Assembly: GCA_035433705.1 (NCBI GenBank)
Contig: DAORVK010000009.1
Coordinates: forward strand, 8,860 to 72,859
DNA: 64,000 nt
Direction: 5' to 3'
From: Steroidobacteraceae bacterium
GTDB lineage: Bacteria; Pseudomonadota; Gammaproteobacteria; Steroidobacterales; Steroidobacteraceae
The notes below the pieces were generated by a model. The model was not told the origin of the DNA. It was given only the letters and a program-made list of their open reading frames with translations, and searched no databases. Numbering within the stretch: the first letter of the stretch is position 1; every line of letters begins with the position of its first letter. Positions 9,915 to 41,693 of this stretch are shown piece after piece. A program made the position numbers and the translations under genes.

Positions 9915-9933
9915 ATAGTCTGTTTGGCCGATG
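9915..9933 (+). promoter_or_regulatory. Weaker copy of the recurring 19-nt motif (ATAGTCTGTTTGGCCGATG)
   Basis: 15 of 19 identical to the copies at 16562 and 29165. Lies 67 nt upstream of the 10000 start, in the LysR-divergent intergenic region. Confidence 0.4.
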
Positions 9934-9999
9934 AACGCCCGGCCCGCAGCCATGACAGTAGCCGCAAGCTGGGCGTGCCCGATGCTGAAAGGATCGCAG

Positions 10000-11277
10000 A
10001 TGAACGACGGGGAAACGGTTACAGGAGACGGCAGGATCACGCCCGAGGATATTGAGCGGGCGCGGGCGCAGATCGGGATTCCGCAGTACGAGCGCAATCC
10101 CGTGTTCAACAAAGTGGCGAGCGGCGACACCATCAGCCACTTCGCCTTCGGCATCGGCGACGACAATCCCCTGTGGCACGACGCGGAGTACGGCCGCGCG
10201 ACGCGCTGGCGCGGGCAGATCGCCTCACCCCTCTACGCCACCACCCTCGGCCTCGACGACACGCCGCGCCCCGGTCCGGAACTCAAGAAACTGTTCCGCG
10301 GATTGTTCCGCGGCGTCGGCAAGTACTACTCCGGCGCGACCTGGGAGTGGTACCGGCCGATTCGCCCCGGGGATGTGATCTGGCGCGAGTACACCACTTC
10401 GGGCGTCGAAGTGAAGGAGAGCTCGAGCTTCAGCGGTGGAATCACGGTGATCGACCGCTATCGCTACCACTATGTGAACGCCAACGGCGAGCCGGTCGCC
10501 ACGCACGAGCTGAGCTTCATCAACGCCGAGCGCCAGGCGTCGAAAGACAAGGGACGCAACAAGGACATCCAGCGGGCAAGCTACACGCCGCAGGACATCG
10601 AGCGGATCGACGCCCTCTATGCTGCGGAGGAAGTGCGCGGCAGCGACACGCGCTATTGGGAAGACGTGCAGGTCGGCGATGAGCTCACTCCCGTGATCAA
10701 AGGCCCGATGAGGGTGACCGACGTCGTGGGATTCCATATCGGCTGGGGGTTCGGGCAGATGTACGGAGCCGGGCCGCTTCGCTACGGCTGGAAGCAGCGT
10801 CGGCGGACACCGGCGTTTTACTCAACGGATGAGTTCGGCGTGCCGGACATCGTGCAGCGCTTGCACTGGGATCCGGCTCGCGCCCGTGAACTCGGCCTGC
10901 CCGCGCCCTACGATTACGGCACCATGCGCACGAACTGGCTCGCGCATCTGCTGACGAACTGGATGGGTGACGACGGGTGGCTCGTGCGCCTGCAGACCGA
11001 GATGCGCGCCTTCAACTTTCTCGGCGACACCACGATCTGCTCGGGCGTGGTGCAGGCAAAGACGATCGAAGGCGCACGCCGTCTCGTGCACATCGAGGTA
11101 AAGGCGACCAATCAGCGAGGTGAAATCACGAGCCCGGGCACAGCTACCGTCATGTTGCCATCGCGCGAAGCAGGAGCGGTCGTTCTGCCCGCGCCGTCCG
11201 AGGCGCTGATTTCCCGCGGCGCAAACATGATGGCAGAAGCGGCCGATCGCAACAGGAGCCGCAAAGGTGGGCCATAG
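10000..11277 (+). CDS. Double hot-dog acyl dehydratase (MaoC N-terminal-like plus MaoC-like domains)
   Basis: DTISHFAFGIGDDNPLWHD in the N-terminal half and hot-dog-like GDTTICSGVVQAKTIEG...VHIEVKATNQRGEITSPGTATV at the C-terminus. AAGGA lies 7 nt before ATG 10000. Confidence 0.75.
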   Translation: MNDGETVTGDGRITPEDIERARAQIGIPQYERNPVFNKVASGDTISHFAFGIGDDNPLWHDAEYGRATRWRGQIASPLYATTLGLDDTPRPGPELKKLFRGLFRGVGKYYSGATWEWYRPIRPGDVIWREYTTSGVEVKESSSFSGGITVIDRYRYHYVNANGEPVATHELSFINAERQASKDKGRNKDIQRASYTPQDIERIDALYAAEEVRGSDTRYWEDVQVGDELTPVIKGPMRVTDVVGFHIGWGFGQMYGAGPLRYGWKQRRRTPAFYSTDEFGVPDIVQRLHWDPARARELGLPAPYDYGTMRTNWLAHLLTNWMGDDGWLVRLQTEMRAFNFLGDTTICSGVVQAKTIEGARRLVHIEVKATNQRGEITSPGTATVMLPSREAGAVVLPAPSEALISRGANMMAEAADRNRSRKGGP

Positions 11278-11301
11278 GAGGATACGATGCGGCGGGCGAT
11301 G

Positions 11302-11643
11302 TCAGCCCTGCTGGCGACCTTCCGGAGCTTCCTCGAGAGCGAGCATCGCAGCCTTGCAGATGGCTTCGGCTTCGGCGTATTTGCCTTCACCGAATTGCGA
11401 CCAGTAGATCGCATCCGGATGGCCCTTGCCGAGCATGCGTTCGACCACTTCTTCGGCGGCTCCGATATCCTCGGAGTAAGCCGTCAATGGAACCCACACG
11501 GAGCCACCGTCGGCGGGATCGATCATGCGCTCCATGAATCCCATGAACTCGTCTCTTGTCGTGACGTTGCCCATGATCTTCTCGGCGACCAGCAGGCTCA
11601 GCCCCTCTCCAGGAGACATCTTCAGGATCTGCTCTCTGTTCAT
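11302..11643 (-). CDS. Small hypothetical protein
   Basis: The minus-strand ORF has more protein-like composition than the overlapping plus ORF 11287-11703. LSLLVAEKIMG faintly recalls phage ABA-sandwich-domain proteins. The start could instead be 11682. Confidence 0.4.
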   Translation of the reverse strand: MNREQILKMSPGEGLSLLVAEKIMGNVTTRDEFMGFMERMIDPADGGSVWVPLTAYSEDIGAAEEVVERMLGKGHPDAIYWSQFGEGKYAEAEAICKAAMLALEEAPEGRQQG

Positions 11644-11699
11644 GCGGTCTTTCCTGTCTCGTTGCAGAACAGTATAGGCCAAGCCGGCAGCCTGACCAC

Positions 11700-12611
11700 A
11701 TGAAGAACATTCTCGTCATCGGTGGCAGCTATTTCGCGGGTCGGGTGCTGGTAGAGGAATTACTCGCTGCCGGCGGCTACGTCCCCTACCTCATGAATCG
11801 TGGCAACCGGCCGTTGAGGCTGGAGGGAGTATGCGAGATTGTCTGCGATCGGCACGATGGGGCGGGAATGGCCAGTGCCGTTGCAGCTCACGAGTGGCAC
11901 GCGGTGGTCGATTTCTGCGCTTACGCACCGGGTGACATCGCAACGCTGCTGCAGCATCTGCCGGGCGCCGTCCGCCAGTACATCTACATCAGCACTGCGT
12001 CCGTGCACCGCAGTTCCACGCATCTGCCCATAAGCGACGATGCCGCGAAACTCACCGGTCCGTCTCCGGGCCGGGAGGGCGCCTATGCCTACCACAAGTG
12101 GCTGCTCGAGCAAGAGCTGGCGAGATGTTGCGAAGAGAAGGCAATTCCGTACGTGTCCCTGCGTCCCGCCATGGTCTATGGCAAGTACAATTATGCCCCA
12201 CGCGAGTCCTGGCTCTTCGATCTGATCAGCAAAGGCGAACCCATCATCCTGCCGCCGCCACCGCAGGCACTTTTCTCGATGGTGTCGGTCTGGGATCTGG
12301 CCTGGATCTGCATTGCCTGTCTGGACAATGGCGCAGTCGCCGGGGGGGCCTATGCGGTCTGCGCCGATGAACTCGTGTCCTGCGATCGCCTGATCGAGGC
12401 GCTCGAGACCATCACCTCGCGAAAGTTCGACGTGCAGCGCCAGACGGTGCGCGTGCTCAATGCCGCAGGCCTGCCGCTGCCCTTCCCACTCGTGGAGCAT
12501 CTGGTGTACTCGGGCGCGCGACTCCGACAGATCCTGCAGCACCGCTTTCTGTCCCTCGAGGAGGGCATGTCAAGAACGTATGAATGGTACCGTCAGGCCG
12601 ATGGCCGGTAG
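11700..12611 (+). CDS. NAD-dependent epimerase/dehydratase-family (extended SDR) protein
   Basis: N-terminal Rossmann motif MKNILVIGGSYFAGRVLVEELL and an SDR-like YxxxK region (YAYHKWLLE). Confidence 0.8.
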   Translation: MKNILVIGGSYFAGRVLVEELLAAGGYVPYLMNRGNRPLRLEGVCEIVCDRHDGAGMASAVAAHEWHAVVDFCAYAPGDIATLLQHLPGAVRQYIYISTASVHRSSTHLPISDDAAKLTGPSPGREGAYAYHKWLLEQELARCCEEKAIPYVSLRPAMVYGKYNYAPRESWLFDLISKGEPIILPPPPQALFSMVSVWDLAWICIACLDNGAVAGGAYAVCADELVSCDRLIEALETITSRKFDVQRQTVRVLNAAGLPLPFPLVEHLVYSGARLRQILQHRFLSLEEGMSRTYEWYRQADGR

Positions 12612-14148: not shown

Positions 14149-14161
14149 GGCCTCTTGACCA

Positions 14162-14788: not shown

Positions 14789-14837
14789 GATGGGCTCTCC
14801 CCTGATTGCAGCAGTTCGGGTCGGCGATGGCGCATGG

Positions 14838-15761: not shown

Positions 15762-15763
15762 GG

Positions 15764-16477: not shown

Positions 16478-16561
16478 GAGCAGGGCTCCTCATCGGACTG
16501 CGCGATGGTGCGGGCGCGCACAAGGGTGGCTCGATTCTCCACTCTTCGTCAATTCGTCGGC

Positions 16562-16580
16562 TTAGTCTGGTCAGACGATG
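16562..16580 (+). promoter_or_regulatory. Recurring 19-nt motif TTAGTCTGGTCAGACGATG (candidate operator)
   Basis: Core palindrome GTCTG-GT-CAGAC. Lies 95 nt upstream of the 16675 start, in the divergent region between the TPR operon and the SnoaL/LLM operon. Confidence 0.55.
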
Positions 16581-16674
16581 TAGCAGGCGATCCCGCTTCC
16601 TAGGCTTTGATCGCGGATCGTCAGCCGGCTGCAGGCAGACCGCTGTCCGGGACTTCGTCGATCGGGGAGCAACA

Positions 16675-17139: not shown

Positions 17140-17152
17140 CTCAGGAGTTCTC

Positions 17153-20951: not shown

Positions 20952-22166
20952 ATGAACAAGCCGCTCGCGGGAATCAGGGTTGTCGAGGTGTCGATGTGGG
21001 CCTTTGTGCCCGCCGCAGGCGCAGTGCTCGCCGACATGGGCGCAGAGGTCGTGAAGATCGAGCCGCCTGCGGGCGACCCGATGCGCTGGCTCACGTACTC
21101 AGGCATCGCGCCCGGCGCCTACGGTTTCACGTTCCTGTGGGAGATCTTCAACCGCGGCAAGCGCAGCATCACCGTGGACCTCAACGTGGAGGGCGCCACG
21201 GAACTGTTGCATCGGCTGCTTGAGGACGCCGACGTTTTCCTGGTGAGCCTGCTGCCGTCTGCCCGTCGCAAGCTCAAGATCGACATCGAGGACGTGAGGA
21301 GTCGTCACCCCAGGCTCATCTACGCGGTCGGCAGCGGCCAGGGCGCCTTCGGGCCCGAGGCGGACAAGGGCGGCTACGACTCGCTGTCGTTCTGGGCACG
21401 TGGCGGGGTGGCCTCGGCGGTCACACCGGACGGCTCGCCCTACGTGCTGCAGCAGCCAGGCGGTGCCTTCGGCGACAGCATCAGCGGCGCGATTCTGGCG
21501 GGTGGTATCGCCGCTGCACTCGCGCAGCGTGCAACGACCGGCAAGGTGTCGGTGGTGGATGCGTCACTCCTCGGCACCTCCATGTGGGTGATGCAGACTG
21601 GCATCATCGGAGCCACGCTCGCCGGCGTGAACGAATTGCCGAAACTGAGTCGCGACGTAGTGCCCAATCCCCTGGTGAACAGCTATCGCACTTCCGACGG
21701 CCGCTTCATCGCACTCTGCATGCTGCAGGGTCAGCGCTACTGGCCCGGGTTTTGCGAGGCGGTGGAGCGCCCGGAGCTGATCGATGATCCGCGTTTCGAC
21801 AGCGATGAGCACCGCTCGGCCAATCTCAAGGCCTGCGTGGCGACTCTCGATGACATCTTTGCCACCCGCACGCTCGCGGAGTGGCAGGCGATCCTCGTCC
21901 GGCAGGAAGGGCAGTGGAACATCGTGCAGCAGGCCGGCGAGTTGGCGCGAGACGCGCAGGCGGTCGCCAATCGCTTCATCCAGGAAGTGGATTATGGTGA
22001 CGGCCGCGCGCTCAAGATGGTCAGCACGCCGTTGCAGTTCGACCGCCAAGCCCTCGACGCCCGGCCGGCGCCGGAGCTGGGTGCCCACAACGACGAAGTT
22101 CTGGCGGAGCTCGGCTACACCGATGAGCAGATCATCGATCTCAGGGTGGCGGGCGTCGTCTTCTGA
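20952..22166 (+). CDS. Family III CoA-transferase (CaiB/BaiF family)
   Basis: PLAGIRVVEVSMWAFVPAAGAVLADMGAEVVKIEPP, and the catalytic-Asp region GGAFGDSISGAILAGGIAAAL. Confidence 0.9.
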   Translation: MNKPLAGIRVVEVSMWAFVPAAGAVLADMGAEVVKIEPPAGDPMRWLTYSGIAPGAYGFTFLWEIFNRGKRSITVDLNVEGATELLHRLLEDADVFLVSLLPSARRKLKIDIEDVRSRHPRLIYAVGSGQGAFGPEADKGGYDSLSFWARGGVASAVTPDGSPYVLQQPGGAFGDSISGAILAGGIAAALAQRATTGKVSVVDASLLGTSMWVMQTGIIGATLAGVNELPKLSRDVVPNPLVNSYRTSDGRFIALCMLQGQRYWPGFCEAVERPELIDDPRFDSDEHRSANLKACVATLDDIFATRTLAEWQAILVRQEGQWNIVQQAGELARDAQAVANRFIQEVDYGDGRALKMVSTPLQFDRQALDARPAPELGAHNDEVLAELGYTDEQIIDLRVAGVVF

Positions 22167-22180: not shown

Positions 22181-22199
22181 TTAGTCCGATCAGACGATT
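22181..22199 (+). promoter_or_regulatory. Recurring 19-nt motif TTAGTCCGATCAGACGATT (candidate operator)
   Basis: Lies in the 66-nt gap between the CoA-transferase and the first acyl-CoA dehydrogenase, 34 nt upstream of ATG 22233. Confidence 0.5.
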
Positions 22200-22232
22200 C
22201 CCCGCCCGAATCCGCTCATAAGAATCCGGGGC

Positions 22233-23438
22233 ATGCACTTCGAGCCCAGTCCCGGTGATGCGGTCTTTCGCGCTGAAGTGCGCCAATTCATCCGGGACCA
22301 TCTGCCTGGCGAGATAGCTCGTCGAAGCTACATCTGCTCGCAGCCGCCGGACATCGTGGACTATCGTCGCTGGCAGCGCATTCTCCACGACCGGGGCTGG
22401 GGGGCGCCGCACTGGCCGGTCGAGCACGGCGGCACAGGCTGGACGGCGATGCAGCAGCACCTCTTCATGGAGGAGGTCTACCGCGCCGATGCCATCGACT
22501 ATGGCTGGCAGGGCACGCACATGATCGGCCCTGTGCTGATCGCGTTTGGCTCGGAGGCGCAGAAGCGGCGCTTCCTGCCGCCCATGCTGCGGGGCGAGGA
22601 AATCTGGTGCCAGGGATTCTCCGAGCCCAATGCCGGCTCGGATCTGGCGAGCCTGCGCACGCGCGCCGAGCTCGAGGGCGATGAATGGGTGATCCACGGA
22701 CAGAAGATCTGGACCAGCGATGCCAGCGAGGCGGACTGGGGATTTTTTCTGGTCCGCACCGATCCGGCCGCAAAACCCCAACGCGGTATCTCACTGCTAC
22801 TCGTGCCCATGAACGCTGCGGGCATCCGCATCCGCCCGATCGAAGTACTGAACGGCGGGCGCGATCTCAACGAAGTGTTTCTGGACGGCGTGCGCGTACC
22901 GCGCGACCACCTGGTCGGCGAGGCGGGACAGGGCTGGACCTACGCAAAGTATCTGCTCGAGAAGGAGCGCACCGCGAGCGCCTACCTGTATCGCAACAAG
23001 CGCGAACTGGAGAAGGCGAAGGAGATAGCCCGCGGCGAGCACGCCGGCGGCGTGCGGCTCATCGATACGCCGGAATTCGCCCGCAAGATTGCCCGTGTCG
23101 AAGCGGATCTGCTCGCCCTCGAGTGGTCGGTGCTGCGCATCCTGGCCGGCGAGAAGAACCTGCACGACGCGCAGGCCATCGTATCGGCGCTCAAGATCCG
23201 TGGTTCGGAGATGCAGCAGCGCGTCGCAGAGTTGCAGATCGATGCGCTGGGTCCGCGTGCCCTGCGGGTTTTCCGCCAAGGCGACTGCAGCGCCGAGGTG
23301 ATCGATGGTACGCCGCTCTGGCCGGCCTACATACCGGGGCGTCTGGGCCAGTTCCTGTATGCGCGGGCCGCCACGCTCTACGGGGGCACGCGCGAGGTGC
23401 AAAAGAACATCATCGCCCGGCGTGCTTTCGGGCTGTGA
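22233..23438 (+). CDS. Acyl-CoA dehydrogenase (alpha-like member of pair 1)
   Basis: WCQGFSEPNAGSDLASLRTRA, IWTSDASEADW, and C-terminal YGGTREVQKNIIARR. Confidence 0.9.
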   Translation: MHFEPSPGDAVFRAEVRQFIRDHLPGEIARRSYICSQPPDIVDYRRWQRILHDRGWGAPHWPVEHGGTGWTAMQQHLFMEEVYRADAIDYGWQGTHMIGPVLIAFGSEAQKRRFLPPMLRGEEIWCQGFSEPNAGSDLASLRTRAELEGDEWVIHGQKIWTSDASEADWGFFLVRTDPAAKPQRGISLLLVPMNAAGIRIRPIEVLNGGRDLNEVFLDGVRVPRDHLVGEAGQGWTYAKYLLEKERTASAYLYRNKRELEKAKEIARGEHAGGVRLIDTPEFARKIARVEADLLALEWSVLRILAGEKNLHDAQAIVSALKIRGSEMQQRVAELQIDALGPRALRVFRQGDCSAEVIDGTPLWPAYIPGRLGQFLYARAATLYGGTREVQKNIIARRAFGL

Positions 23439-23446
23439 GCGCCGGG

Positions 23447-24592
23447 ATGGATTTCAATCTCACCGACGAGCAGCAGATGTTGCGCGACGGCGCGCGGCGT
23501 TTCTTTCGCGAGCACTACGGTTTCGAGCAGCGCCGCGCGCTGCTGGCAAGCGAGTCAGGATTTTCCGCCGAGTGTTGGGCCCGCTATGCCGAACTCGGCT
23601 GGCTCGCGCTCGGCCAGCCGGAGGAGAGCGGTGGCTGGGCCTGCTCCTTCGTCGAGACGGCAATCCTGCTGGAGGAGTTCGGTCGTGCGCTCGCGCTCGA
23701 GCCCTATCTTTCCTCCGCCGTGCTGTGCGGGCACATCCTCGGACGCTGCAGCGATGCCAGAGCGGGCGGCGCGGCGCTGCAGGAAATGATGAAAGGCCGT
23801 ACGCGCCTCGCACTTGCCCACGAGGAGCCTGGTGACCGCTACGATGCCGATTTTCCAGGGCTCGTCGCCACGCGTCGCGGCGACGGCTTCCTGTTGCAGG
23901 GCACGAAGAGCTGCGTGCTCGATGCGCCGGCGGCCGATCGCCTGATTGTCTCGGCGCAGCCCGGGGGCGAGAACGGTCTCGCGCTCTTCCTGGTCGATGC
24001 GGCCACCCCTGGTCTGCGGATGAACGCCTACCCTCTGGTGGACGGCACGAGGGCGGCGGACATCGTGCTCGATGGCGTACGGGTGCCGGCCGCGTGCCTG
24101 CTCGCAGGCGGTGCTGCGGCTCGCGATCTCCTGCATGAGGCCCTCGATCGCGCCACGCTTGCGCGAGTCGCGATGGCGCTCGGTGCCATGGAGAGCGTGC
24201 TGCAGTTGACGGCGGACTACCTGAAGACGCGCGTGCAATTCGGCCAGCCGATCGGGCGTTTCCAGGCCCTGCAGCACCGTCTCGCGGAAATGTTCGTGGA
24301 GGTGCAGGAGACACGCTCGATCCTCTGCTGCGGCCTTGCACAGATGGGTGGACCGGCGGCACAGCGCAGCGCCATGGTTTCTGCCGCCAAGGTCGTTGCG
24401 GTGAATGCCGCGAGAATCGTCGGCGGGCAGGCGATCCAGCTGCACGGCAGCATCGCGATGACGGCCGAATACGCAGCCGGTCACTACTATGAACATCTGC
24501 TCGCCTTCGAGAAAATCCACGGCGATGCGGACTGGCATCTCGATCGCTTCGCGCGCTTGCGGGGGACCCATGCAGCTGTCGTGCACGCCTGA
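23447..24592 (+). CDS. Acyl-CoA dehydrogenase family protein (beta-like member of pair 1)
   Basis: MDFNLTDEQQMLRDGARRFF..., QFGQPIGRFQALQHRLAEM, IQLHGSIAMTAEY. The ATG lies 8 nt after the upstream stop. Confidence 0.85.
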   Translation: MDFNLTDEQQMLRDGARRFFREHYGFEQRRALLASESGFSAECWARYAELGWLALGQPEESGGWACSFVETAILLEEFGRALALEPYLSSAVLCGHILGRCSDARAGGAALQEMMKGRTRLALAHEEPGDRYDADFPGLVATRRGDGFLLQGTKSCVLDAPAADRLIVSAQPGGENGLALFLVDAATPGLRMNAYPLVDGTRAADIVLDGVRVPAACLLAGGAAARDLLHEALDRATLARVAMALGAMESVLQLTADYLKTRVQFGQPIGRFQALQHRLAEMFVEVQETRSILCCGLAQMGGPAAQRSAMVSAAKVVAVNAARIVGGQAIQLHGSIAMTAEYAAGHYYEHLLAFEKIHGDADWHLDRFARLRGTHAAVVHA

Positions 24593-25745
24593 AGAAACGC
24601 AGTTCCGCGAGGAAGTCCGTGCCTGGCTGCGTGCGAACGTGCCGCGCAGCAAGCGCCCCCGCACAGGACTCGCGCTGCGCGACTACGACCTCGCATGGCA
24701 ACGCTGCCAGTACGAAGGCGGCTGGGCCGGCATCTCCTGGCCCCGGGAATACGGCGGGCGGGGGCTGTCGCTTACGCAGCAGGTGATCTGGTACGAGGAG
24801 TGCGCGGCGGCCCACGCACCCGTCGGCGGCTCGACTTTCGTCGGGCTCTCACACGCGGGACCGACCCTGATCGTGCGCGGCACCGAAGAACAGAAGCGCT
24901 TCCATCTGCCGAAGATCCTGCAGGGCGAGGCTGTCTGGTGCCAAGGCTTCTCCGAGCCAAATGCCGGCTCGGACCTTGCGAGCCTGAAGACCAGGGCCCA
25001 TGTCGAGGGCGAGCATCTGGTCGTCAACGGCTCGAAGATCTGGACCTCCTACGCCGCGCTCGCCGACTGGCAGGAACTGCTGGTGCGCACGGACCCGGGC
25101 GCGCAGCGTCACAGGGGCCTCACCTGGGTGATCTGCGACATGCATGCTCCAGGCATCACCATAAGAAGGATTCCGACCTTGTCGGGCACCGGCAACTTGT
25201 GTCAGGTGTTCTACGACGAGGTACGTCTGCCGCTCGCCAACGTGGTGGGTGAAGTGAACGGTGGCTGGGATGTGTCCATGACCACGCTCGGCTTCGAGCG
25301 CGGCACAGCCTTCATCGCGCACCAGATCCATCTCGCTGCGATGCTGGAGAAGCTCTACGTGATGGCCCACGATCTCCGCGGGCCGGACGGCCGCCTGCCT
25401 GCGATCGAGGATGGCGCGGTGGCCGATCAGCTGCTGAAATTGCGGGCGGAGGTGGCGGCGCTGCGCGCCATGACCTATCTCAGCGTCTCGCGCGGCGCGC
25501 GCCAGGTGGTGCCCGGTCCCGAGGGCAACATCATCGCGCTCTGCTACGCCGAGCTCTCGAAGCGCGTCTACGCTTTCGCCGTGGAACTGTTGGGCAACGA
25601 GGCCCTGGAAATGCACGACGAGAACCCCGACTGGCTCACCGACTATCTGGATGCATTCAAGAACACCATTGCGGGCGGCACTTCAGAGATCCGGCGCAAC
25701 GTGATCGGCGAGCGGCTCCTCGGGCTGCCGCGCGGCGGACGCTGA
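24570..25745 (+). CDS. Acyl-CoA dehydrogenase (alpha-like member of pair 2)
   Basis: WCQGFSEPNAGSDLASLKTRA, IWTSYAALADW, and C-terminal AGGTSEIRRNVIGERLLGLP. The start overlaps the preceding gene by 23 nt. Confidence 0.9.
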   Translation: MQLSCTPEETQFREEVRAWLRANVPRSKRPRTGLALRDYDLAWQRCQYEGGWAGISWPREYGGRGLSLTQQVIWYEECAAAHAPVGGSTFVGLSHAGPTLIVRGTEEQKRFHLPKILQGEAVWCQGFSEPNAGSDLASLKTRAHVEGEHLVVNGSKIWTSYAALADWQELLVRTDPGAQRHRGLTWVICDMHAPGITIRRIPTLSGTGNLCQVFYDEVRLPLANVVGEVNGGWDVSMTTLGFERGTAFIAHQIHLAAMLEKLYVMAHDLRGPDGRLPAIEDGAVADQLLKLRAEVAALRAMTYLSVSRGARQVVPGPEGNIIALCYAELSKRVYAFAVELLGNEALEMHDENPDWLTDYLDAFKNTIAGGTSEIRRNVIGERLLGLPRGGR

Positions 25746-25758
25746 GCACGGTGCAATC

Positions 25759-26778
25759 ATGATCGATCTCCTACCCTCCGAAGTAGAGCAGCAGATCATC
25801 GACGGTGTTGCCGGCTTCCTCGCAGAGGAGCTGCCCCTGGCGCGGCTGCGTCCGGGTCCCGATGGTGAGCGTTCGGCCGACATCGGCATCTCCGCGGAGC
25901 AGTGGCATGAAATCGCCGGCCTGGGTTGGTTCGGTCTAGGCATCCCCGAGGAGCGGGGTGGCGCGGGCTTCACGGTCGTCGCTGAAATGCTCGTGGTGCG
26001 CGAAGTCGGTCGCTACGCCGTTTCGCCTTCAATCTCCGCGACGATCGCGGCCGCATGCCTGGCCGCGCGCGCCGACAGCGAACTCCTCGCGGGTCTCCTG
26101 GCTGGGGAGCGGCGCGTCGCTTTCGCCAGTCGCCTGTGCGCCGGGAGCGACGAATACCATCTGGTCGATGCGCGCGGTGCCGACCACTTGCTGGTGGTGG
26201 ATGGCATGCAGGCGCAGCTCTACGGCGCTGCCGCCTTCGGCGAAGTGAGGCCCGTGATTTCGCTGGACGATGCCGTGACCCTCGAGCGTGCGCGCCTCAC
26301 TGCGGGCGCCCGGCCGCTGCTGCAGGAGGCCGACAGCGACATCGGGCATCGAGCTTCGCTGCACAACTCTGCGCAGCTGCTCGGTGTAGCGGAGGGCGCG
26401 CTGACGCTGTCGGTGGAGTACGCGAAGGTGCGCGAGCAGTTCGGACAGGCCATCGGCTCCTTTCAGACGATCAAGCATCGCTGCGCCGACATGGCGGTGA
26501 TGGCGGAGGCGGCCTATGCCCAGGCCTTCTTCGCCGGGCTATCGCAGGCGGGCGGCCAGCGCGATGCGGCCTACCAGATCGCGGCAGCCAAGGTGATTTG
26601 CGCCGAGGCCGCACTCGCCAACGCCCGCTCTGGCATCCAGATCCACGGCGGCATCGGCTTCACGGCCGAGTGCGACGCCCACGTCTTCCTGAAGCGTGCG
26701 CATTTGCTCGGCCAGATGGGAGGGGAACGACGCTGGGTCCGTGAGACCCTTCTGTCAAAGACGGGGGTGGTTGCGTGA
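25759..26778 (+). CDS. Acyl-CoA dehydrogenase family protein (beta-like member of pair 2)
   Basis: QFGQAIGSFQTIKHRCADM, IQIHGGIGFTAECDAHVFLKRA. A shorter 339-aa protein. Confidence 0.85.
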   Translation: MIDLLPSEVEQQIIDGVAGFLAEELPLARLRPGPDGERSADIGISAEQWHEIAGLGWFGLGIPEERGGAGFTVVAEMLVVREVGRYAVSPSISATIAAACLAARADSELLAGLLAGERRVAFASRLCAGSDEYHLVDARGADHLLVVDGMQAQLYGAAAFGEVRPVISLDDAVTLERARLTAGARPLLQEADSDIGHRASLHNSAQLLGVAEGALTLSVEYAKVREQFGQAIGSFQTIKHRCADMAVMAEAAYAQAFFAGLSQAGGQRDAAYQIAAAKVICAEAALANARSGIQIHGGIGFTAECDAHVFLKRAHLLGQMGGERRWVRETLLSKTGVVA

Positions 26779-27687: not shown

Positions 27688-28065
27688 TCAAGGCTCGGCG
27701 CCACCCGCTGCGGCGATCGCTTCCTCGGTCACGCGCAGCAGACTGCTCACCCTTGGATAGCCCGCATACTGCGCGAGATGAATCAGTGTCTCGCGCGCCT
27801 GCTCGGCCGTGAGCTCGCCATTGGCGAGCGCGGCGCGCACCTGGATGCCCCAGGTGGTCTGCTCGCCGAGTGCGGCGATAACGCCCATCGTGAGCAGGCG
27901 CCGGTCGCGGACCGACAGCGCCTCGCGCGTCCACACCTCTGCGAAGAGTTGCTCGAGCATCAGATCGCCGAAGGCGCTCTGGCCTGCGACGGGCGCGGGT
28001 ACGACGTCCGCGTACACTTTCCGCATCATTGCCGCACCCCTGGTTCGTCGATCAGAGCCGCTCAT
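27688..28065 (-). CDS. Carboxymuconolactone decarboxylase-family (AhpD-like) protein
   Basis: FAEVWTREALSVRDRRLLTMGVIAALG...ELTAEQARETLIHLAQYAGYP. The start overlaps the AraC stop (ATGA). Confidence 0.8.
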   Translation of the reverse strand: MSGSDRRTRGAAMMRKVYADVVPAPVAGQSAFGDLMLEQLFAEVWTREALSVRDRRLLTMGVIAALGEQTTWGIQVRAALANGELTAEQARETLIHLAQYAGYPRVSSLLRVTEEAIAAAGGAEP

Positions 28066-29057
28066 TGCCTCGCTCCTTCCATCACCGGGTCGGGTAACAC
28101 GTTTGCCGTCTCCGGGCCGGCGCGCGTCGTCCGGTTGCGATAGGCGTGAGGTGCCACGCCGAATGTCTTACGGAAGCTCCGCGAGAAGTATTGCGGATCC
28201 GGATAGCCCACGGTGACAGAAATCTGCTTGATCGTCAGCGCAGTCGTATCGAGCAGCCGGCAGGCCTGCTGCAGGCGCATCCGGGTGAAGTACTGCATGG
28301 GTGCGAGACCGGTCCGCCTCTTGAAGGTCCGCGCAAAGTGATAGGGCGACAGGTTGGAGGCTCGCGCGATTTCCTCCAGCCGCAAGGGGTCACAGAGTCG
28401 CTGTGCCATGAGTCCGCGAATCCGGCCGAGATCGATGCGGTTCTTCTTCCCGTTCGTCTTGCGCGACACGAGCACCGGGATACTGGTCAGCAGCACCTTC
28501 AGCAGATTGGCGCCGTTGATGAACCTGTCGACGTTGAAGCTCGCGAGCTGCAAATCGTGCAGCCCGCAGAGTGATTCGAACTGGGCGATCAGCTCGGGGT
28601 GCAGACCCACGGACACCACGTTGTCGGAGAGATCGATGAACTGTGTGTACGCTGCGCTCAGGTTTCCGGAGAACGCCACCCAATAGAAGCTCAGGAGTGT
28701 TTCATCTGACGCCGCCGCAAGCGCGGACGTGCCCGGCGGATTGATCGCAATGTCTCCGGGGGACAGCAGCCGATCGGCGGCGGCGGAGCGCAGTCGCATC
28801 TTTCCGCGGATGCAGTAATACACCACATGACACGGTTGCATGAAGGGGTCGTGTCCTGGATCGCGTGAATAGTGCCCGGCCGCACGAGTATGGAGATCGC
28901 CTCCCAAAGGATGGTCGTGCAGCGTCCGACGCAACTCGGTCGGCAGGATAAAGCGCGAGCACCCGTTCGGTATCGGGTACTGCTGAAGCGGGTAACCGCG
29001 GCTCCCGCCGCCCTCATCTTCGGGCAAGTCGGCATACGTCTGGGCAAGAATGTCCAT
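28062..29057 (-). CDS. AraC-family transcriptional regulator
   Basis: An N-terminal cupin-like domain and a C-terminal double HTH (LEEIARASNLSPYHFARTFKRRTGLAPMQYFTRMRLQQACRLL...VTVGYPDPQYFSRSFRKTFGVAP). Confidence 0.85.
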   Translation of the reverse strand: MDILAQTYADLPEDEGGGSRGYPLQQYPIPNGCSRFILPTELRRTLHDHPLGGDLHTRAAGHYSRDPGHDPFMQPCHVVYYCIRGKMRLRSAAADRLLSPGDIAINPPGTSALAAASDETLLSFYWVAFSGNLSAAYTQFIDLSDNVVSVGLHPELIAQFESLCGLHDLQLASFNVDRFINGANLLKVLLTSIPVLVSRKTNGKKNRIDLGRIRGLMAQRLCDPLRLEEIARASNLSPYHFARTFKRRTGLAPMQYFTRMRLQQACRLLDTTALTIKQISVTVGYPDPQYFSRSFRKTFGVAPHAYRNRTTRAGPETANVLPDPVMEGARQ

Positions 29058-29164: not shown

Positions 29165-29183
29165 CTAGTCTGGTCAGACGATG
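29165..29183 (+). promoter_or_regulatory. Recurring 19-nt motif CTAGTCTGGTCAGACGATG (candidate operator)
   Basis: Lies in the AraC/TonB-receptor divergent region, 109 nt upstream of ATG 29292. 18 of 19 identical to the copy at 16562. Confidence 0.55.
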
Positions 29184-29291
29184 CCGCAGGAGAAACCGGC
29201 TCGCCAGCCTCGTCTGTGCCACAGGCATCGATGTGCATCGAGGCATTTTCGGGTGCGGACACACTCGTACAACCTGAAGGGGACATCATCA

Positions 29292-32776: not shown

Positions 32777-32780
32777 CTCG

Positions 32781-35255: not shown

Positions 35256-35258
35256 GTC

Positions 35259-37303: not shown

Positions 37304-37336
37304 TGGCGGCGCCAACGGGCTGCTGCTGTCAGCCAA

Positions 37337-37774
37337 TCAGGGTCGAGTCGTCTGCCCCACGAAGAGATGGGCCCGCGCGACCGCAACAGGCGCGCTCTCG
37401 TCGCTCTGCCAGCAACCGACGCTGACCGCCGCCACCCGTCGACCGATGCGCTGGAAGCTGCAGCGCGCATGGAGGTCCTTCGGTCCGGCATGGCTCAGGT
37501 AGTCGATCGAGAAATCGATGAATCGGGGCGGGCGCTGCTCGCCGAGCTGAGCGAACGCGGCGACGAGCGCCGTGATCTGCATGAAGCTGCCGATGACTCC
37601 GCCATGGATGGCCGGCAGGCGCATGTTGCCGATCAGGCGCTGCTGGAATGGAAGTCGCAGCATGATGCCGCGATCGTCCGTGCACTGCTCGAGGCAGGCA
37701 CCGATCTGCTGCGCATACGGCATGCGGGAGAGGGCCCGCGCAGCGCGCTCCGCGATCGCGGATGGGCCGCTCAC
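37337..37774 (-). CDS. PaaI-family hot-dog thioesterase (second of a pair)
   Basis: MPYAQQIGACLE...NMRLPAIHGGVIGSFMQITAL...IDYLSHAG. GTG 37774 forms a GTGA overlap with the upstream thioesterase stop; the first ATG is at 37723. Confidence 0.65.
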   Translation of the reverse strand: MSGPSAIAERAARALSRMPYAQQIGACLEQCTDDRGIMLRLPFQQRLIGNMRLPAIHGGVIGSFMQITALVAAFAQLGEQRPPRFIDFSIDYLSHAGPKDLHARCSFQRIGRRVAAVSVGCWQSDESAPVAVARAHLFVGQTTRP

Positions 37775-38220
37775 GGGCGGGCGCCGCCTGGCGAGTGGGA
37801 AGTTCGCATGAAGGCCCCGTTTGCGCTCGCCACCGGCCGCTCGTGCCGTCCCGAGTGCAATTCGCACCGGACGAAGATGACTGAACGGGTCACTCGATAG
37901 CACGCGGCTTCGGCCACCAGATCGTGTTTCAGGGGAGCCGGCGCAAGGTAATCGATGCGCAGATCCAGCGTGGACATGGGTTCGGGGCGCTCGAGACTGC
38001 GACCGGCAGCAAGCCCGCAAGCAGTGTCGGCGAGGCTAAACAGGACGCCGGGAAAGAAGAATCGCTCGTCCGGATCTGCAGCCAGCATCGGTTGAGCGAC
38101 AATGCGCATGCGGATCTTTCCCGGGGGCGAAGCAAGGTCGACTTTCATGCCGACGTCGATCGTGTGAGGCATGTGCTGCTCGATGATGCGAGCGAGATTT
38201 TCAAGTGAGAGCTGACTCAT
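37771..38220 (-). CDS. PaaI-family hot-dog thioesterase (first of a pair)
   Basis: MPHTIDVGMKV...FFFPGVLFSLADTACGLAA...LRIDYLAPA, which follows the PaaI/4HBT-like pattern. Confidence 0.75.
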   Translation of the reverse strand: MSQLSLENLARIIEQHMPHTIDVGMKVDLASPPGKIRMRIVAQPMLAADPDERFFFPGVLFSLADTACGLAAGRSLERPEPMSTLDLRIDYLAPAPLKHDLVAEAACYRVTRSVIFVRCELHSGRHERPVASANGAFMRTSHSPGGARP

Positions 38221-38316
38221 GGTTCACGTCCCTCTGCCGCGCCATAGACCATGTGGACGACGCCGCGTTTGAGCGCCCGTCCATAATTCAGGCTGCTGTC
38301 GTGTGAGGTTGAAGAC

Positions 38317-39096
38317 ATGATTGATACCGCTCTGCACATCGTGACCGAGAAACGTGAGGGCGTGCTACGCGTGGAGATTCATCGCCCGGAGAAGAAGAAT
38401 GCCCTGACCGCCGCGATGTATGGGCAGTTGGCCGATGTATTCCAGCAGGCCGCCGGGGATAGTGACATCCGCGTGCTGCTGCTCCATGGGCAGCCTGGCG
38501 CATTCACGGCAGGCAACGATCTGGGGGAATTCCTGAATGATCCGCCGATGAACGAAGATGCGCCGGTCTTCCGTTTCCTTACGGCCTTCCGGGACTTTCC
38601 GAAGCCCTTTCTCGCCGCGGTGACCGGGGCGGCCGTCGGCGTTGGCACGACAATGCTGCTCCATTGCGACATGGTGTTCGCGGGCGAGGGAGCAAAGTTC
38701 CAGCTGCCCTTCGTCAGCCTTGGTCTGTGTCCTGAAGCAGCTTCCAGTCTGTTGCTCCCGGCCTTGATCGGCCACGCGCGGGCGGCGGAGATCATCCTGC
38801 TGGGCGAACCCTTCGGCGCCGGGCAAGCGCGCGAGATGGGCCTCGTCAATGCGGTGCTGCCCGACGCCGAGGTGCTCGATCATGCGCTCGTCCGGGCTCG
38901 CAGGCTCGCGGCGCAGCCCCCGGCGGCGGTGCGGCTGGCGAAGCAGCTGCTGAAGCGACCGCAGGCGGCGCTGGTCAGGGAAACCATGGCGGAGGAAGAT
39001 CGGCAGTTCAAGGCGCGTCTCACTTCGCCGGAGGCGAGGGAAGCCTTCGGCGCGTTCCTCGAGAAGCGCAAGCCCGACTTCTCGCGCTTCTCGTGA
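38317..39096 (+). CDS. Enoyl-CoA hydratase/isomerase (crotonase family)
   Basis: RVEIHRPEKKNALT, FTAGNDLGEF, AAVTGAAVGVGTTMLLHCDMVFA, EAREAFGAFLEKRKPDF. Confidence 0.9.
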   Translation: MIDTALHIVTEKREGVLRVEIHRPEKKNALTAAMYGQLADVFQQAAGDSDIRVLLLHGQPGAFTAGNDLGEFLNDPPMNEDAPVFRFLTAFRDFPKPFLAAVTGAAVGVGTTMLLHCDMVFAGEGAKFQLPFVSLGLCPEAASSLLLPALIGHARAAEIILLGEPFGAGQAREMGLVNAVLPDAEVLDHALVRARRLAAQPPAAVRLAKQLLKRPQAALVRETMAEEDRQFKARLTSPEAREAFGAFLEKRKPDFSRFS

Positions 39097-39118
39097 GCCC
39101 CGCATCGGGCTGGCCCGG

Positions 39119-39940
39119 TCATCGTGCGTCGGGCTTTGCCATGCGCGCCAGGATGCGGCGAGCACGTTCCATGACCGGCCGGTCGATCATCTCGCCATCG
39201 AGCGAGCGAGCCGCGCCGGTATCGGCCGTCGCGATGACTCGCTGGGCCCAGGAGACTGCCGCCTCGTCGGGCCGAAAGGCATGACTGATGGGTGCGATCT
39301 GGCGTGGGTGGATCGCGAGCTTGCCGCCAAAGCCCAGATCGGCAGCGCGGCGCGCATCGTGCGCAACGGCAACCGGATCATCGATTGCCGTGGTGACGCC
39401 ATCGAGTGGTGCCGCTAGTCCGGCAAGCCGTGAGCGCAGCACGAGTTCCGCGCGCGCCGGCAGCAGTGGTTCCCAGGCGTGCGCACAACCGAGGTCGAGT
39501 GCGTAGTCGATCGAGCCAAGAGCGGCCATGCACACTCCTGGCGCCCCGAGAATATCGGTCAGACCAGCGAGCCCTGCGGCGCTTTCGATGAGAGGAATCA
39601 CAGACACGGTGCGCTGCAGAGCTGCTTGAATGGCTGCGATATCGCCGGCGTGCTCGACCTTCGGCAGCATCAGCGCGGCGATGGGGATTTCCCTGAGCGC
39701 GGCGAGATCGGCCTCAAACCAGGGAGAGGTGCGCGCGTTGACGCGGATGATCGTCCGGGATCCGTCCAGGCCATGACTGCGAATGCACTCACGCGCATAG
39801 GCCTTGCGTTCTGCCGCAACGGCGTCCTCGAGGTCCAGAATGACGGCGTCGGCGCCGCTCGCGGCAGCCTTTGCAAATCGTTCCGGCCGATCGCCCGGGA
39901 CGAACAGCGGCGCGATGAGGGGGCGGATCGACGTGCTCAC
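39119..39940 (-). CDS. HpcH/HpaI aldolase / CitE-like acyl-CoA lyase
   Basis: PLFVPGDRPERFAKAAASGADAVILDLEDAV..., RVNA..., LMLPKVE..., GFGGKLAIHPRQI. The second GTG at 39940 forms a GTGA overlap with the upstream stop; the ORF extends to 39994. Confidence 0.85.
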   Translation of the reverse strand: MSTSIRPLIAPLFVPGDRPERFAKAAASGADAVILDLEDAVAAERKAYARECIRSHGLDGSRTIIRVNARTSPWFEADLAALREIPIAALMLPKVEHAGDIAAIQAALQRTVSVIPLIESAAGLAGLTDILGAPGVCMAALGSIDYALDLGCAHAWEPLLPARAELVLRSRLAGLAAPLDGVTTAIDDPVAVAHDARRAADLGFGGKLAIHPRQIAPISHAFRPDEAAVSWAQRVIATADTGAARSLDGEMIDRPVMERARRILARMAKPDAR

Positions 39941-40794
39941 CACGATGCCGTGGCCTCCATGTTTCTCTCGCCGTGCGACGATTGTGTCCAGCATCGCAGG
40001 CTGCCGTCGGCCTCGCGCCGGCAGCAGACGTAGAAGTCACTTCCTGCAATCAGCGGCGCGACGCCCCGGTACTCGAAAGCCCGCGGTGTGCTGCCACCGA
40101 TCGTGGCCGCGAGATTCAGCAGCAGGGTGGCCTGTAGCGGGCCGTGTACGACCAGGCCCGCATAGCCCTCGACGTCCATTGCATAGGGCTGGTCGTAATG
40201 GATGCGGTGGCTGTTGAAAGTCAGTGCCGAATACCGGAACAGCAGCACCGGAGAAGCCGCTATGGTCCACACTCCATCGCAGTCCGCGGGAGGAGTGCAC
40301 GCGGCGGCCTCTGCGGCACGGGCTCGTGTCTCGCCCATTGGTGGCAACGCCGCTTCGCGATAGACGAGATCCTGCCGCTCGCGAATGACCGCGCTGCGTT
40401 CCGTGGCGAGTTCGTGCTCCACCGTGACGAAGGCGAGCGTTCCCGAGCGGCCTTCCTTGCACGTGATCTCGGCGATTTTCGAGCGGCGCGTGACTCGATC
40501 ATCCAGGCGCAATGGCGCGTTCGTTTCGACTCGACCTCCGGCCCACATGCGTCGCGGCAGCGGTAGGGGTGGCAGGAAGTCTCCAGTCAGAGGATGGCCG
40601 TCGGCTCCGATTCGGGAACCGTCGGCGGCTTCGGGAGCGAGACACCAGTGAATCGCCGGCGGCGCATCGCCAGGCTCCGTGCGTGCGAGGTGTGGTGTCA
40701 GGGTCGCGCAGTAGGCGTCGACCAGTCGGGGCGTCAGCACGTCGGCGCTCTCGCGAGTGCGACCGATCCACTGCGTCAGGGTAGGGAGATCCAA
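39937..40794 (-). CDS. FAS1-like/MaoC-type acyl-CoA hydratase (itaconyl-/mesaconyl-CoA hydratase-like)
   Basis: LTQWIGRTRESADVLTPRLVDAYCATL, MWAGGRVE, FRYSALTFNSHRIHYD...GLVVHGPL. Start uncertain: TTG 40794 lies 10 nt after the upstream stop; GTG 40848 and GTG 40878 would overlap the upstream gene. Confidence 0.7.
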   Translation of the reverse strand: MDLPTLTQWIGRTRESADVLTPRLVDAYCATLTPHLARTEPGDAPPAIHWCLAPEAADGSRIGADGHPLTGDFLPPLPLPRRMWAGGRVETNAPLRLDDRVTRRSKIAEITCKEGRSGTLAFVTVEHELATERSAVIRERQDLVYREAALPPMGETRARAAEAAACTPPADCDGVWTIAASPVLLFRYSALTFNSHRIHYDQPYAMDVEGYAGLVVHGPLQATLLLNLAATIGGSTPRAFEYRGVAPLIAGSDFYVCCRREADGSLRCWTQSSHGERNMEATASW

Positions 40795-40804
40795 AGCCGC
40801 GCTC

Positions 40805-41632
40805 TCAGTAACCCCGATACTTTGGCTCGCGACCTTCGCGCGCCGCACGCAGTACTTCCCTGGCGTCGTCGGTCGCACTGCATTGCATCATGTTGTAGGC
40901 CTCGAGCTCGATGACCTGCTCGAGCGTCATCGATTCCGCAGCGTTGAGGCTGCGCTTGATGTAGCGGTAGGCCACCGGTGGGCCATCGTCCAGACGGCTC
41001 GCGAGCGCCTGCGTTTCCCCTTCCAGCTCGGCATCCGGCACGACGCGCGTTACGAGGCCGATGCGCAGGGCCTCATCCGCCGGGATCTTGTCTCCGAGCA
41101 GATAGAGTTCCCGCGCCTTTGCCGGCCCGACCACACGCGGGAGAAGATAGCTGCCGCCGAAATCCCCGGGCCGCGCCGCCCTGACGTAGGCCGTGGCGAA
41201 CGATGCGGTTTCCGAGGCAATACGAATGTCGCAAGCGGCGGCGAGGCACAGTCCGGCGCCGACGACAGGGCCGCGCAGCATCGCGATCGTCGGCTTCGGC
41301 ATGGTGTGCAGCAGGATCGGCGAGCGGCTGAGCCTCCCGACGTGCGAAGCGCGCATGCCGACCGATTTCCACACCGGATCCTCGGACCATCTGACGCTGA
41401 CAGGATCTCCCGGATCCAGTTGCTCGCGGCTGCGCAGATCCCCTCCCGAGCAGAAGCCGCGACCCGTGCCGGCCAGTACGACGACTCTCACGCCGGGATC
41501 GACGCTGGCCGCTTCCAGCGCCTCGTTGAGCAGCCGCATCAACTCCCATGTGAGCGCATTGAGCTGCTCGGGGCGATTCAGCGTCAGCGTGAGAACGCCT
41601 TCGAGCTGCTGTCTGAGTAGAACGGATGTCAT
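40805..41632 (-). CDS. Enoyl-CoA hydratase/isomerase (crotonase family)
   Basis: LTLTLNRPEQLNALT, GFCSGGDL, AMLRGPVVGAGLCLAAACDIRIA, AREGREPKY. Confidence 0.9.
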   Translation of the reverse strand: MTSVLLRQQLEGVLTLTLNRPEQLNALTWELMRLLNEALEAASVDPGVRVVVLAGTGRGFCSGGDLRSREQLDPGDPVSVRWSEDPVWKSVGMRASHVGRLSRSPILLHTMPKPTIAMLRGPVVGAGLCLAAACDIRIASETASFATAYVRAARPGDFGGSYLLPRVVGPAKARELYLLGDKIPADEALRIGLVTRVVPDAELEGETQALASRLDDGPPVAYRYIKRSLNAAESMTLEQVIELEAYNMMQCSATDDAREVLRAAREGREPKYRGY

Positions 41633-41673
41633 GTCATTCTCTCGTCAACTTAACTGTCGCAAGTGCGAGTACT

Positions 41674-41693
41674 CATCGTCCGTTCAGACGATG
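41674..41693 (+). promoter_or_regulatory. Recurring motif, most palindromic copy: CATCGTCCGTTCAGACGATG (candidate operator)
   Basis: Inverted repeat CATCGTC-N6-GACGATG. Lies in the divergent region between the crotonase operon (minus) and the carboxylase genes (plus), 86 nt upstream of ATG 41779. Confidence 0.55.

Follow-up and report, generated by a model that had tools for sequence, protein, structure and literature searches.

A conserved promoter box in a Steroidobacteraceae catabolic island, proposed as the binding site of its LuxR-type, TesR/TeiR-like regulator

At the promoters controlled by LuxR, TraR and LasR, a dimeric regulator with a C-terminal GerE-type four-helix helix-turn-helix (HTH) binds the lux box, an 18–20-bp inverted repeat centred at -42.5 over a poor -35 element, with a sigma-70 -10 element at a fixed spacing, as in class II activation, and positive autoregulation is common in these systems. 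LuxR-type proteins are also encoded inside steroid catabolic clusters. In Comamonas testosteroni, TesR and TeiR have been described as positive regulators needed for the induction of steroid genes (PMC6678751, PMC8700777), TeiR-like genes are found in the steroid cluster of Pseudomonas Chol1 (PMC8399759), and a 2026 preprint on strain TA441 mentions Pseudomonas counterparts of tesR, which lie at the end of the scd gene cluster. Their mode of action is unsettled, with roles as transcription factor and as kinase both proposed (PMC6678751), and a 2021 review considered it largely unknown how Proteobacteria regulate the degradation of steroids and bile acids (PMC8399759). With regard to a DNA target of TesR/TeiR-type regulators, none was found in open-access text, subscription journals lying outside the search. 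The present analysis concerns a stretch of 64,000 nucleotides from a Steroidobacteraceae bacterium (assembly GCA_035433705.1, contig DAORVK010000009.1, positions 8,860 to 72,859), hereafter the window, in which a short, partly palindromic motif recurs upstream of the transcription units of a catabolic island. With a probability of roughly 0.78, this motif would be the binding box of the island's own LuxR-type, TesR/TeiR-like regulator and part of an activator-dependent sigma-70 promoter.

Genes in the window were called by GC3 and scanned against Pfam, and the whole 64 kb were searched with the pattern TAGTCYGNTCAGACGAT, allowing up to three mismatches, with 100 dinucleotide-preserving shuffles as the control. 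Eight matches were observed against 0.65 expected, and none of the 100 shuffles reached eight, which upholds the view of a preliminary description of this DNA that a chance origin is very unlikely. That description had listed five forward-strand copies in intergenic DNA, 34–109 nt before the start codons; all five sequences are present where they had been placed, all five lie between called genes, and the distances hold. Three copies are exact (16563, 22182 and 29166) and a fourth has one mismatch (41676). The copy at 9916, which had been regarded as weaker, is so with respect to the window pattern (three mismatches), but not with respect to the consensus of other genera, from which it departs at one position (A13 to C). 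A position weight matrix (PWM) trained on 123 sites, with the window and its close relatives excluded, recovers exactly the same sites in the window, where the shuffle maxima range from 8.0 to 15.7 (Table 1). Two earlier statements require amendment. The 9-mer TCAGACGAT, said to occur four times and only in promoter regions, is present five times, the fifth copy (26463–26471) lying inside an acyl-CoA dehydrogenase (ACAD) coding sequence without a full box. Furthermore, the forward-strand boxes do face their downstream genes, as had been described, and the copy at 41674–41693 scores in the reverse direction as well (24.8 and 24.0). Both the carboxylase operon on one side and the divergently transcribed hydratase-lyase operon on the other are probably served by this fifth box.

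The promoter context of the box was analysed in an alignment, on the motif, of 135 non-redundant sites from 53 loci with a mutual flank identity of at most 55%. The consensus, T(A/C)GTC(C/T)-N3-(C/T)(G/A)GACGATG, forms an imperfect palindrome of 18 bp whose half-sites are spaced by 10 bp, and a G is found at box position 18 in 89% of the sites even though the search pattern did not demand it. No conservation was seen in this alignment upstream of the box. Downstream there is one sharp signal, an A at position 40 (70%) and a T at position 44 (67%); the combination A-N3-T is found in the exact register in 61% of the sites and one base further in another 19%, together 80%, against approximately 3% in other registers. 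As read from the alignment, this signal is a predicted sigma-70-type -10 hexamer at positions 39–44, located 21–22 nt downstream of the box. A transcription start would then be expected near position 51, with the box covering approximately -50 to -33 and the centre of the dyad at about -42.5. In the -35 region only the TG of box positions 17–18 is conserved and positions 19–21 are not; this TG sits where the TTG of a -35 element with a 17-bp spacer would lie. A dyad at about -42.5 over a defective -35, at a rigid spacing, indicates by analogy the class II layout of lux boxes. The orientation of the box would be constant because its promoter-proximal arm, GACGATG, overlaps the -35 position, and the constant form of the imperfection in the palindrome would be due to a second function of the right arm, that of a -35 remnant. 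A generic sigma-70 promoter scan around box 2 found nothing, which is attributed to the lack of a -35 element, the -10 element having surfaced only when many sites were aligned.

Of the 135 sites, 123 are located elsewhere than deep within called genes, despite a coding fraction of the DNA of about 84%. A co-oriented gene start is found within 300 nt of 61% of the sites, compared with 42% when the sites are flipped, a figure limited by crude gene calling; the contrast is modest in part because many sites lie in divergent spacers, and back-to-back divergent pairs of boxes occur in other loci.

Two further box-like sequences of the window should be distinguished from the five boxes. The first, TCGTCTGTTCAGACGTTG, lies within a hydantoinase-A-like gene and has GGCTGC in place of a -10 element at the fixed distance; its reverse reading scores 15.2 at 42678 on the minus strand. 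Because it has no -10 and overlaps the codons for NIVCSDVGGTSFD, it is regarded as a probable coincidence of coding sequence, with at most a cryptic or roadblock role, and not as a promoter. The second, a marginal candidate at 38245 (TAGACCATGTGGACGACG), has a PWM score within the range of the shuffle maxima and its status as a box is not established; a CATAAT (38282–38287) is found 20 nt downstream of it, one base nearer than usual.

In the proposed mechanism, a dimer of the LuxR-type regulator would bind the half-sites T(A/C)GTCC and, as the complement, GGACGA, 10 bp apart from centre to centre. Bound to the box at approximately -50 to -33, where the conserved TG precedes a TAnnnT-type -10 element by 17 bp, the dimer would recruit or position RNA polymerase at promoters that lack a proper -35. 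Six promoters of the window are predicted to be under this control, with transcription starts for box 4 expected near 29217 and for box 5 near 41726 on the plus strand and near 41640 on the minus strand (for the others, see Table 1). Their targets would be the hot-dog dehydratase operon, the operon of SnoaL, luciferase-like monooxygenase (LLM) and regulator genes, the four ACAD genes, the operon encoding a TonB-dependent receptor, an LLM, a CoA-transferase, an MFS transporter and a short-chain dehydrogenase/reductase (SDR), and, in opposite directions from the single palindromic box, the carboxylase and hydratase-lyase operons. As box 2 stands in front of the operon that contains the regulator gene, positive autoregulation is proposed. 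The ligand would presumably be a steroid-derived metabolite, sensed by PAS/GAF-like modules. The direction of regulation, as judged from promoter geometry, would be activation.

The same protein could instead act as a repressor that occludes the -35 region until an inducer releases it. A protein bound at about -50 to -33 could indeed block RNA polymerase, and a LuxR-type repressor of the 3,17beta-hydroxysteroid dehydrogenase gene has been reported in C. testosteroni (cited in PMC6678751 and PMC8700777). However, promoters without a usable -35, of which only the TG is kept, should be weak when unaided, and a box-to-(-10) spacing fixed within 1 bp in 80% of the sites is typical of activators that contact the polymerase and needless for occlusion. 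Moreover, regulators of the TesR/TeiR type have been described as positive (PMC6678751, PMC8700777, PMC8399759). Repression therefore seems unlikely, though it fares better than the other alternatives considered below. The preliminary description had proposed a shared operator, and a regulon, for one regulator; the shared site and the single regulator are retained here, whereas the fixed spacing to the -10 element and the absence of a real -35 suggest an activator site and not an operator in the sense of a repressor target.

The identity of the regulator was approached through loci whose sole ground for selection was a gene for a relative of the LuxR-type protein, irrespective of the motif. 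From an alignment of 26 homologues, 80 loci were fetched from contigs representing one genome per species. The motif is present in most of them, including loci of Pseudomonas, Pandoraea, Pseudoduganella, a Neisseriaceae bacterium, Oceanospirillaceae and Endozoicomonas, in which the identity of the regulator is no higher than 40–48%. With the family-wide pattern TMGTCYNNNYRGACGAT and up to one mismatch, 247 sites were found in 1.44 Mb, compared with 3.7 in shuffles, and 67 of the 81 regulator loci contain at least one site. The sites are densest in the 2 kb that flank the regulator gene to the left and to the right, and in 46 of 79 loci a co-oriented box lies no more than 2.5 kb upstream of it. 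When 36 proteins of the window were compared by tblastn with the regulator loci, of which 18, distant and related, were examined, the LuxR-type protein was the sole consistent counterpart in distant loci; the other matches there were generic SDR, ACAD and enoyl-CoA hydratase hits of low identity, plus one LysR match of 28% (L043).

These results bear on the possibility that the box is bound by the AraC-type or the LysR-type protein of the window, or by a factor encoded elsewhere. The AraC gene is divergent from box 4 and the LysR gene from box 1, and in close relatives the LysR gene stays beside the dehydratase gene. Nevertheless, AraC had no tblastn match in the 18 loci examined, in which boxes are abundant, and LysR matches were confined to close relatives and the single match in L043; the sites, besides, peak right beside the LuxR-type gene. 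The spacer between the LysR and dehydratase genes also holds a conserved block of its own (9863–9878) that could be the LysR site. The preliminary description had named LuxR-type, AraC and LysR proteins as candidates, and the first is favoured over the other two because it alone consistently accompanies the box in the distant loci examined. A role for AraC, LysR or a factor encoded elsewhere, including a trans-acting factor that always travels with the LuxR-type family, is thus quite improbable.

The LuxR-type protein of the window, of 403 amino acids, is 70–99% identical to proteins of Steroidobacteraceae metagenome-assembled genomes, 79% identical to ACG33_03715 of Steroidobacter denitrificans and 51% identical to a protein of Sterolibacterium denitrificans; homologues range from 373 to 405 amino acids. 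It matches the GerE family of Pfam at residues 381–433 of the long open reading frame (ORF) with E=0.002, below the gathering score, and PF00196 is on record for many homologues. A profile of the family searched against the PDB retrieved only GerE/NarL-type DNA-binding domains (VraR, GerE, VpsT, DevR and NarL, best E=8e-4), with an additional weak PAS-like stretch. In an AlphaFold2 model (mean pLDDT, the predicted local distance difference test score, 73.5), two alpha/beta sensor modules are connected by a long helix (176–215) and the C-terminus forms the four-helix HTH (helices 332–339, 343–353, 358–365 and 369–383) that defines the LuxR/GerE (NarL/FixJ-type) class. The sensor part resembles tandem GAF/PAS proteins in Foldseek (PDE5/6 GAF-A/B, bacteriophytochromes, DhaR-N), with low template modelling scores (TM-scores) of approximately 0.2–0.35, and VqmA is found among the matches at ranks 39 and 50. 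No N-terminal Pfam family, the autoinducer-binding domain included, was detected even at E values up to 10, and NCBIfam holds no specific family for the regulator. The acyl-homoserine-lactone binding domain of quorum-sensing LuxR proteins is thus absent from the Pfam matches, and the protein is predicted to act in the manner of lux-box activators but is no quorum-sensing LuxR. The dyad of the box, with its 10-bp half-site spacing, fits the binding of a predicted dimer.

That the box might be a promoter element of an alternative sigma factor, such as the extracytoplasmic function (ECF) sigma factor encoded in the window, appears very improbable. Apart from the presence of the gene, this possibility is favoured by the kinship of the GerE-type HTH with sigma region 4 and by the GAC- and CGTC-like strings of many ECF promoters. 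Yet the TAnnnT-like downstream element is of the kind used by sigma-70 and not by ECF factors, a dyad whose half-sites are 10 bp apart is suited to a dimer rather than to a single sigma domain, and the gene that travels with the box is that of the LuxR-type regulator, the ECF sigma factor not being among the 36 tblastn queries. Hardly credible is the fallback offered in the preliminary description, a transcribed element such as an RNA hairpin or other RNA signal in the 5' untranslated region, which could account for the constant orientation relative to the downstream gene and for the inverted repeat of the core, but is at odds with a -10 element 21–22 nt downstream in a fixed register, which places the box upstream of the predicted transcript, with the back-to-back divergent pairs and the window copy that scores both ways, with a core, GTCTG-GT-CAGAC, whose loop of 2 nt is too small for a hairpin, and with the absence of any Rfam family at the boxes at gathering scores.

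In the reverse direction, metagenome contigs were scanned with TAGTCCNNTYGGACGATG alone, which yielded at least 120 loci. Among the 120 listed sites with enough downstream sequence, 73 carried A-N3-T at register 0 or +1, compared with 0–15 for control registers. The first downstream ORFs of the listed loci encode SDRs (12), ACAD-type proteins (6), flavin reductases (5), alpha/beta-hydrolases (5), CoA-transferases (2), TonB receptors (2) and MFS transporters (2), and a homologue of the regulator is encoded in 7 of the 120, most of these loci being short. Since, in this metagenome scan, sites found from the motif alone carry the -10 signal and precede catabolic ORFs, the motif does not behave as a dispersed repeat without promoter bias, the outcome that the preliminary description had regarded as fatal.

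Conservation at orthologous loci, which the same description had put forward as a check, is also observed: the boxes are kept before orthologous genes in relatives while the flanks diverge. In syntenic relatives (L001/L007, L005, L006, L085 and L087) with a regulator 80–89% identical to that of the window, the boxes before the orthologous dehydratase and SnoaL genes are invariant together with their -10 elements, and the surrounding spacer DNA diverges. The 18-mer of box 1 and its GACAGT are identical in L001, L005, L085 and L087, between divergent flanks. When the intergenic region of the window is aligned with those of L001 and L002, box 2 is the one long stretch without variation, and it is conserved in L005, L006, L085 and L087 as well. 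Box 3 is kept before the ACAD genes of L001, L005, L006 and L087, apart from one spacer base; in L085, a box is found at 21138 after an insertion of about 8 kb that ends with a P450 gene, and the downstream gene lies beyond the end of the locus. Boxes likewise precede the paralogues of the TonB receptor in L009 and L015. Furthermore, L003 encodes a paralogous regulator, 67–68% identical, divergent from a molybdenum-hydroxylase-type operon (FAD_binding_5, Fer2_2). No match to the window-type pattern was found in this locus at up to three mismatches, but the PWM detects one box (9819–9836, minus strand) in the spacer between regulator and operon, which hints that paralogous regulators drive different modules with the same box.

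Several observations weigh against a TesR/TeiR-like activator acting through the box. Published work presents TeiR as a polar kinase associated with the membrane and not as a simple DNA binder (PMC6678751), and a homology search seeded with a Pandoraea homologue returned no Comamonas protein among its best 120. The position at about -42.5 follows from a predicted -10 element, and that of box 4 is poor and shifted by one base. The annotated ATGs at 22233 and at 41637/41632 lie at, or within 10 nt of, the predicted starts, so that either the mRNAs would be leaderless or the start codons are misplaced. With regard to the distribution of the box, 14 of the 81 regulator loci have no strict site, including Sterolibacterium-like and Nevskia loci, although some of these contigs are short. 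An enumeration of inverted repeats in site-less loci (Sterolibacterium-like, Nevskia, Panacagrimonas and Steroidobacteraceae paralogues) gave nothing convincing. At a lower PWM threshold, the Nevskia loci (L024–L028; e.g. L025, 7062–7079) are seen to keep only the promoter-proximal half, which stands about 250 nt past the regulator gene as TAAGCCATTTGGACGATT or, in some of the loci, as TAACCC..., with GAGTCT behind it; this half-box is a degenerate variant of the design. Finally, no box was found on plasmid pNL2 of Novosphingobium aromaticivorans (L089) at the locus of a regulator with 31% identity, so that not every LLM-LuxR module possesses the box. In that locus (7712–10488), an LLM gene, the LuxR-type regulator gene and a steroid delta-isomerase gene are adjacent, a trio that echoes the SnoaL-LLM-regulator module of the window.

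The genes behind the boxes of other genera connect the family with steroid catabolism. The genes with boxes in front of them in Pseudomonas sp. 2FG (L045) are one for a Rieske oxygenase of the KshA type, which is followed by the regulator gene, one for a KstD-like flavoprotein, genes for DUF1302/DUF1329 outer-membrane proteins, an alpha/beta-hydrolase gene accompanied by aldolase and acetaldehyde dehydrogenase genes, an SDR gene and a NUDIX gene. More generally, the neighbours of the Pseudomonas regulators include KshA, KstD-like FAD_binding_2, DUF1302/1329, TesD-like hydrolase and SDR genes. The first ORFs behind 93 non-redundant boxes most commonly encode alpha/beta-hydrolases (11), SDRs (10), NUDIX (9), DUF1302 (7) and FAD_binding_2 (6) proteins and SnoaL (5), followed by KshA, flavin reductases, ACADs and TonB-receptor plugs (3 each), the families from which the 9,10-seco steroid pathway is known. 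In most Pseudomonas loci a box is found directly past the stop codon of the regulator gene (e.g. L045, 11289–11305; L067, 11162–11178), and in L045 the gene behind it is the NUDIX gene.

Compared with the systems described at the outset, the design appears to be a known one in kind. The promoters share with those of LuxR, TraR and LasR an inverted repeat, a weak -35 and a -10 element at fixed spacing from the box, with predicted starts, and the regulator shares the GerE-type domain, a predicted dimeric state and predicted positive autoregulation. Unlike those regulators, it has no acyl-homoserine-lactone domain in Pfam and two PAS/GAF-like modules, in the model, instead; the sequence of its box, T(A/C)GTCC-N4-GGACGATG, is unrelated to the lux box, and the regulon is catabolic and not quorum-controlled. 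PAS-LuxR regulators and VqmA likewise combine a small-molecule sensor of the PAS/GAF class with a GerE-type HTH and a dyad site, but the window family, at about twice the length, carries two sensor modules with a long helix between them and differs in target sequence and biology, with the low TM-scores already mentioned.

TeiR is said to be about 390 amino acids long. LuxR-type proteins of similar length, among the homologues of 373–405 amino acids, are encoded inside Pseudomonas steroid clusters, and from its genomic context and architecture the window protein is most likely TesR/TeiR-like. It departs from TesR/TeiR in that its target genes in the window are not the classical 9,10-seco genes and in the membrane-associated kinase character described for TeiR. 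The likeness to the actinobacterial KstR and KstR2 regulons lies in a single short palindrome in front of many steroid-cluster operons, from which the regulon can be read. KstR and KstR2 are repressors of the TetR family, and their motif differs from the box. The Pfam scan of the window genes yielded no TetR-family protein, the box promoters have no -35, and, unlike KstR/KstR2, the geometry of the window box indicates activation. Both regulators are summarised in PMC6678751. What would be new is the conserved and apparently undescribed box of regulators of steroid clusters in Proteobacteria.

Table 1. Boxes, predicted promoters and other features of the window. All -10 and +1 positions are predictions.
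Feature	Position	Strand	Sequence	PWM score	Predicted -10	Predicted +1	Putative target, source or remark
Box 1	9916–9933	+	TAGTCTGTTTGGCCGATG	20.2	GACAGT 9954–9959	near 9966	Double hot-dog (MaoC-like) dehydratase operon, ATG 10000 or 9982
Box 2	16563–16580	+	TAGTCTGGTCAGACGATG	25.8	TAGGCT 16601–16606	near 16613	SnoaL / LLM / LuxR-type regulator operon, SnoaL ATG 16675
Box 3	22182–22199	+	TAGTCCGATCAGACGATT	26.1	AAGAAT 22220–22225	near 22232, at annotated ATG 22233	Four ACAD genes, 22233–26778
Box 4	29166–29183	+	TAGTCTGGTCAGACGATG	26.1	CAGCCT 29205–29210 (best; one base beyond the usual distance, weakest of the set)		TonB-dependent receptor operon, ATG 29292, genes to about 37303
Box 5	41674–41693	both orientations	CATCGTCCGTTCAGACGATG	24.8 (+, at 41676); 24.0 (-, at 41674)			Near-perfect palindrome
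Box 5, rightward		+			TAGCCT 41714–41719		Acetone-carboxylase-like genes, ATG 41779
Box 5, leftward		-			TAAGTT 41647–41652		Enoyl-CoA hydratase / MaoC / HpcH-lyase operon, ATG 41637 or 41632
Box-like sequence	42680–42697	+	TCGTCTGTTCAGACGTTG	19.9			Inside hydantoinase-A-like coding sequence
Marginal candidate box	38245–38262	+	TAGACCATGTGGACGACG	13.0			Upstream of enoyl-CoA hydratase gene 38317–39096
LuxR-type regulator gene, 403 amino acids	18244–19455	+					Proposed box-binding activator
LysR-type gene	8888–9823	-					Pfam scan
AraC-type gene	28062–29057	-					Pfam scan
Lrp gene	55947–56450						Pfam scan
ECF sigma factor gene	61702–62319						Pfam scan
Glycyl-radical enzyme gene (pyruvate formate-lyase-like)	6189–8825	-					Beside LysR gene, at island edge
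Radical-SAM activase gene	5185–6168	-					Partner of glycyl-radical enzyme
Fluoride riboswitch	53830–53912	-					Rfam
Small ORF behind fluoride riboswitch	53348–53749	-					CrcB-like by eye only
tRNA-Ala	54033–54108						Rfam
tRNA-Arg	58968–59043						Rfam

Taken as a whole, the window represents a catabolic island, with genes for MaoC-like hot-dog hydratases, amidohydrolases, SnoaL, LLMs, family III CoA-transferases, four consecutive ACADs, a TonB-dependent receptor, MFS and SDR proteins, enoyl-CoA hydratases and an HpcH-type lyase, and includes an acetone-carboxylase-like set of three genes. At its edge, an oxygen-sensitive glycyl-radical enzyme adjoins the steroid-type regulon; the trio of glycyl-radical enzyme, activase and LysR genes is syntenic in L001. 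The 16-nt block in the divergent spacer between the LysR and dehydratase genes, GGCATTCTGGAACACG, is conserved in L001 and separate from the box; it is a candidate LysR site, and the dehydratase promoter may have two inputs. Rfam, at gathering scores, detected only two tRNAs and a fluoride riboswitch in the whole window, and the tRNA genes may mark the border of the island.

A broader and more tentative reading, to which we give somewhat less than an even chance, is that the box is an unreported DNA target of TesR/TeiR-type regulators and marks a steroid regulon common to many beta- and gamma-Proteobacteria, and that the window regulon, with its non-canonical enzymes, flags an undescribed route for steroids or steroid-like compounds, possibly an oxygen-sparing one. 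The enzymes in question would be the acetone-carboxylase-like ATP-dependent enzyme, the family III CoA-transferases, the LLMs, the amidohydrolases, the ACADs of heteromeric type and the dedicated TonB-dependent receptor. Should the box already have been published for TesR, the result would shrink to a routine regulon annotation of this genome; if the broader reading is true, PWM scans could find new steroid catabolic genes in uncultured bacteria.

A conserved box in a fixed promoter geometry provides a direct, testable model for the regulation of steroid clusters, and box and regulator together would be ready-made parts for steroid-responsive expression systems or biosensors. With such a model, the regulon could be predicted directly from genomic and metagenomic sequences, among them those from uncultured and denitrifying steroid degraders, and catabolic genes that are so far unassigned, such as those for the unusual enzymes of this island, would be tied to one inducible pathway.

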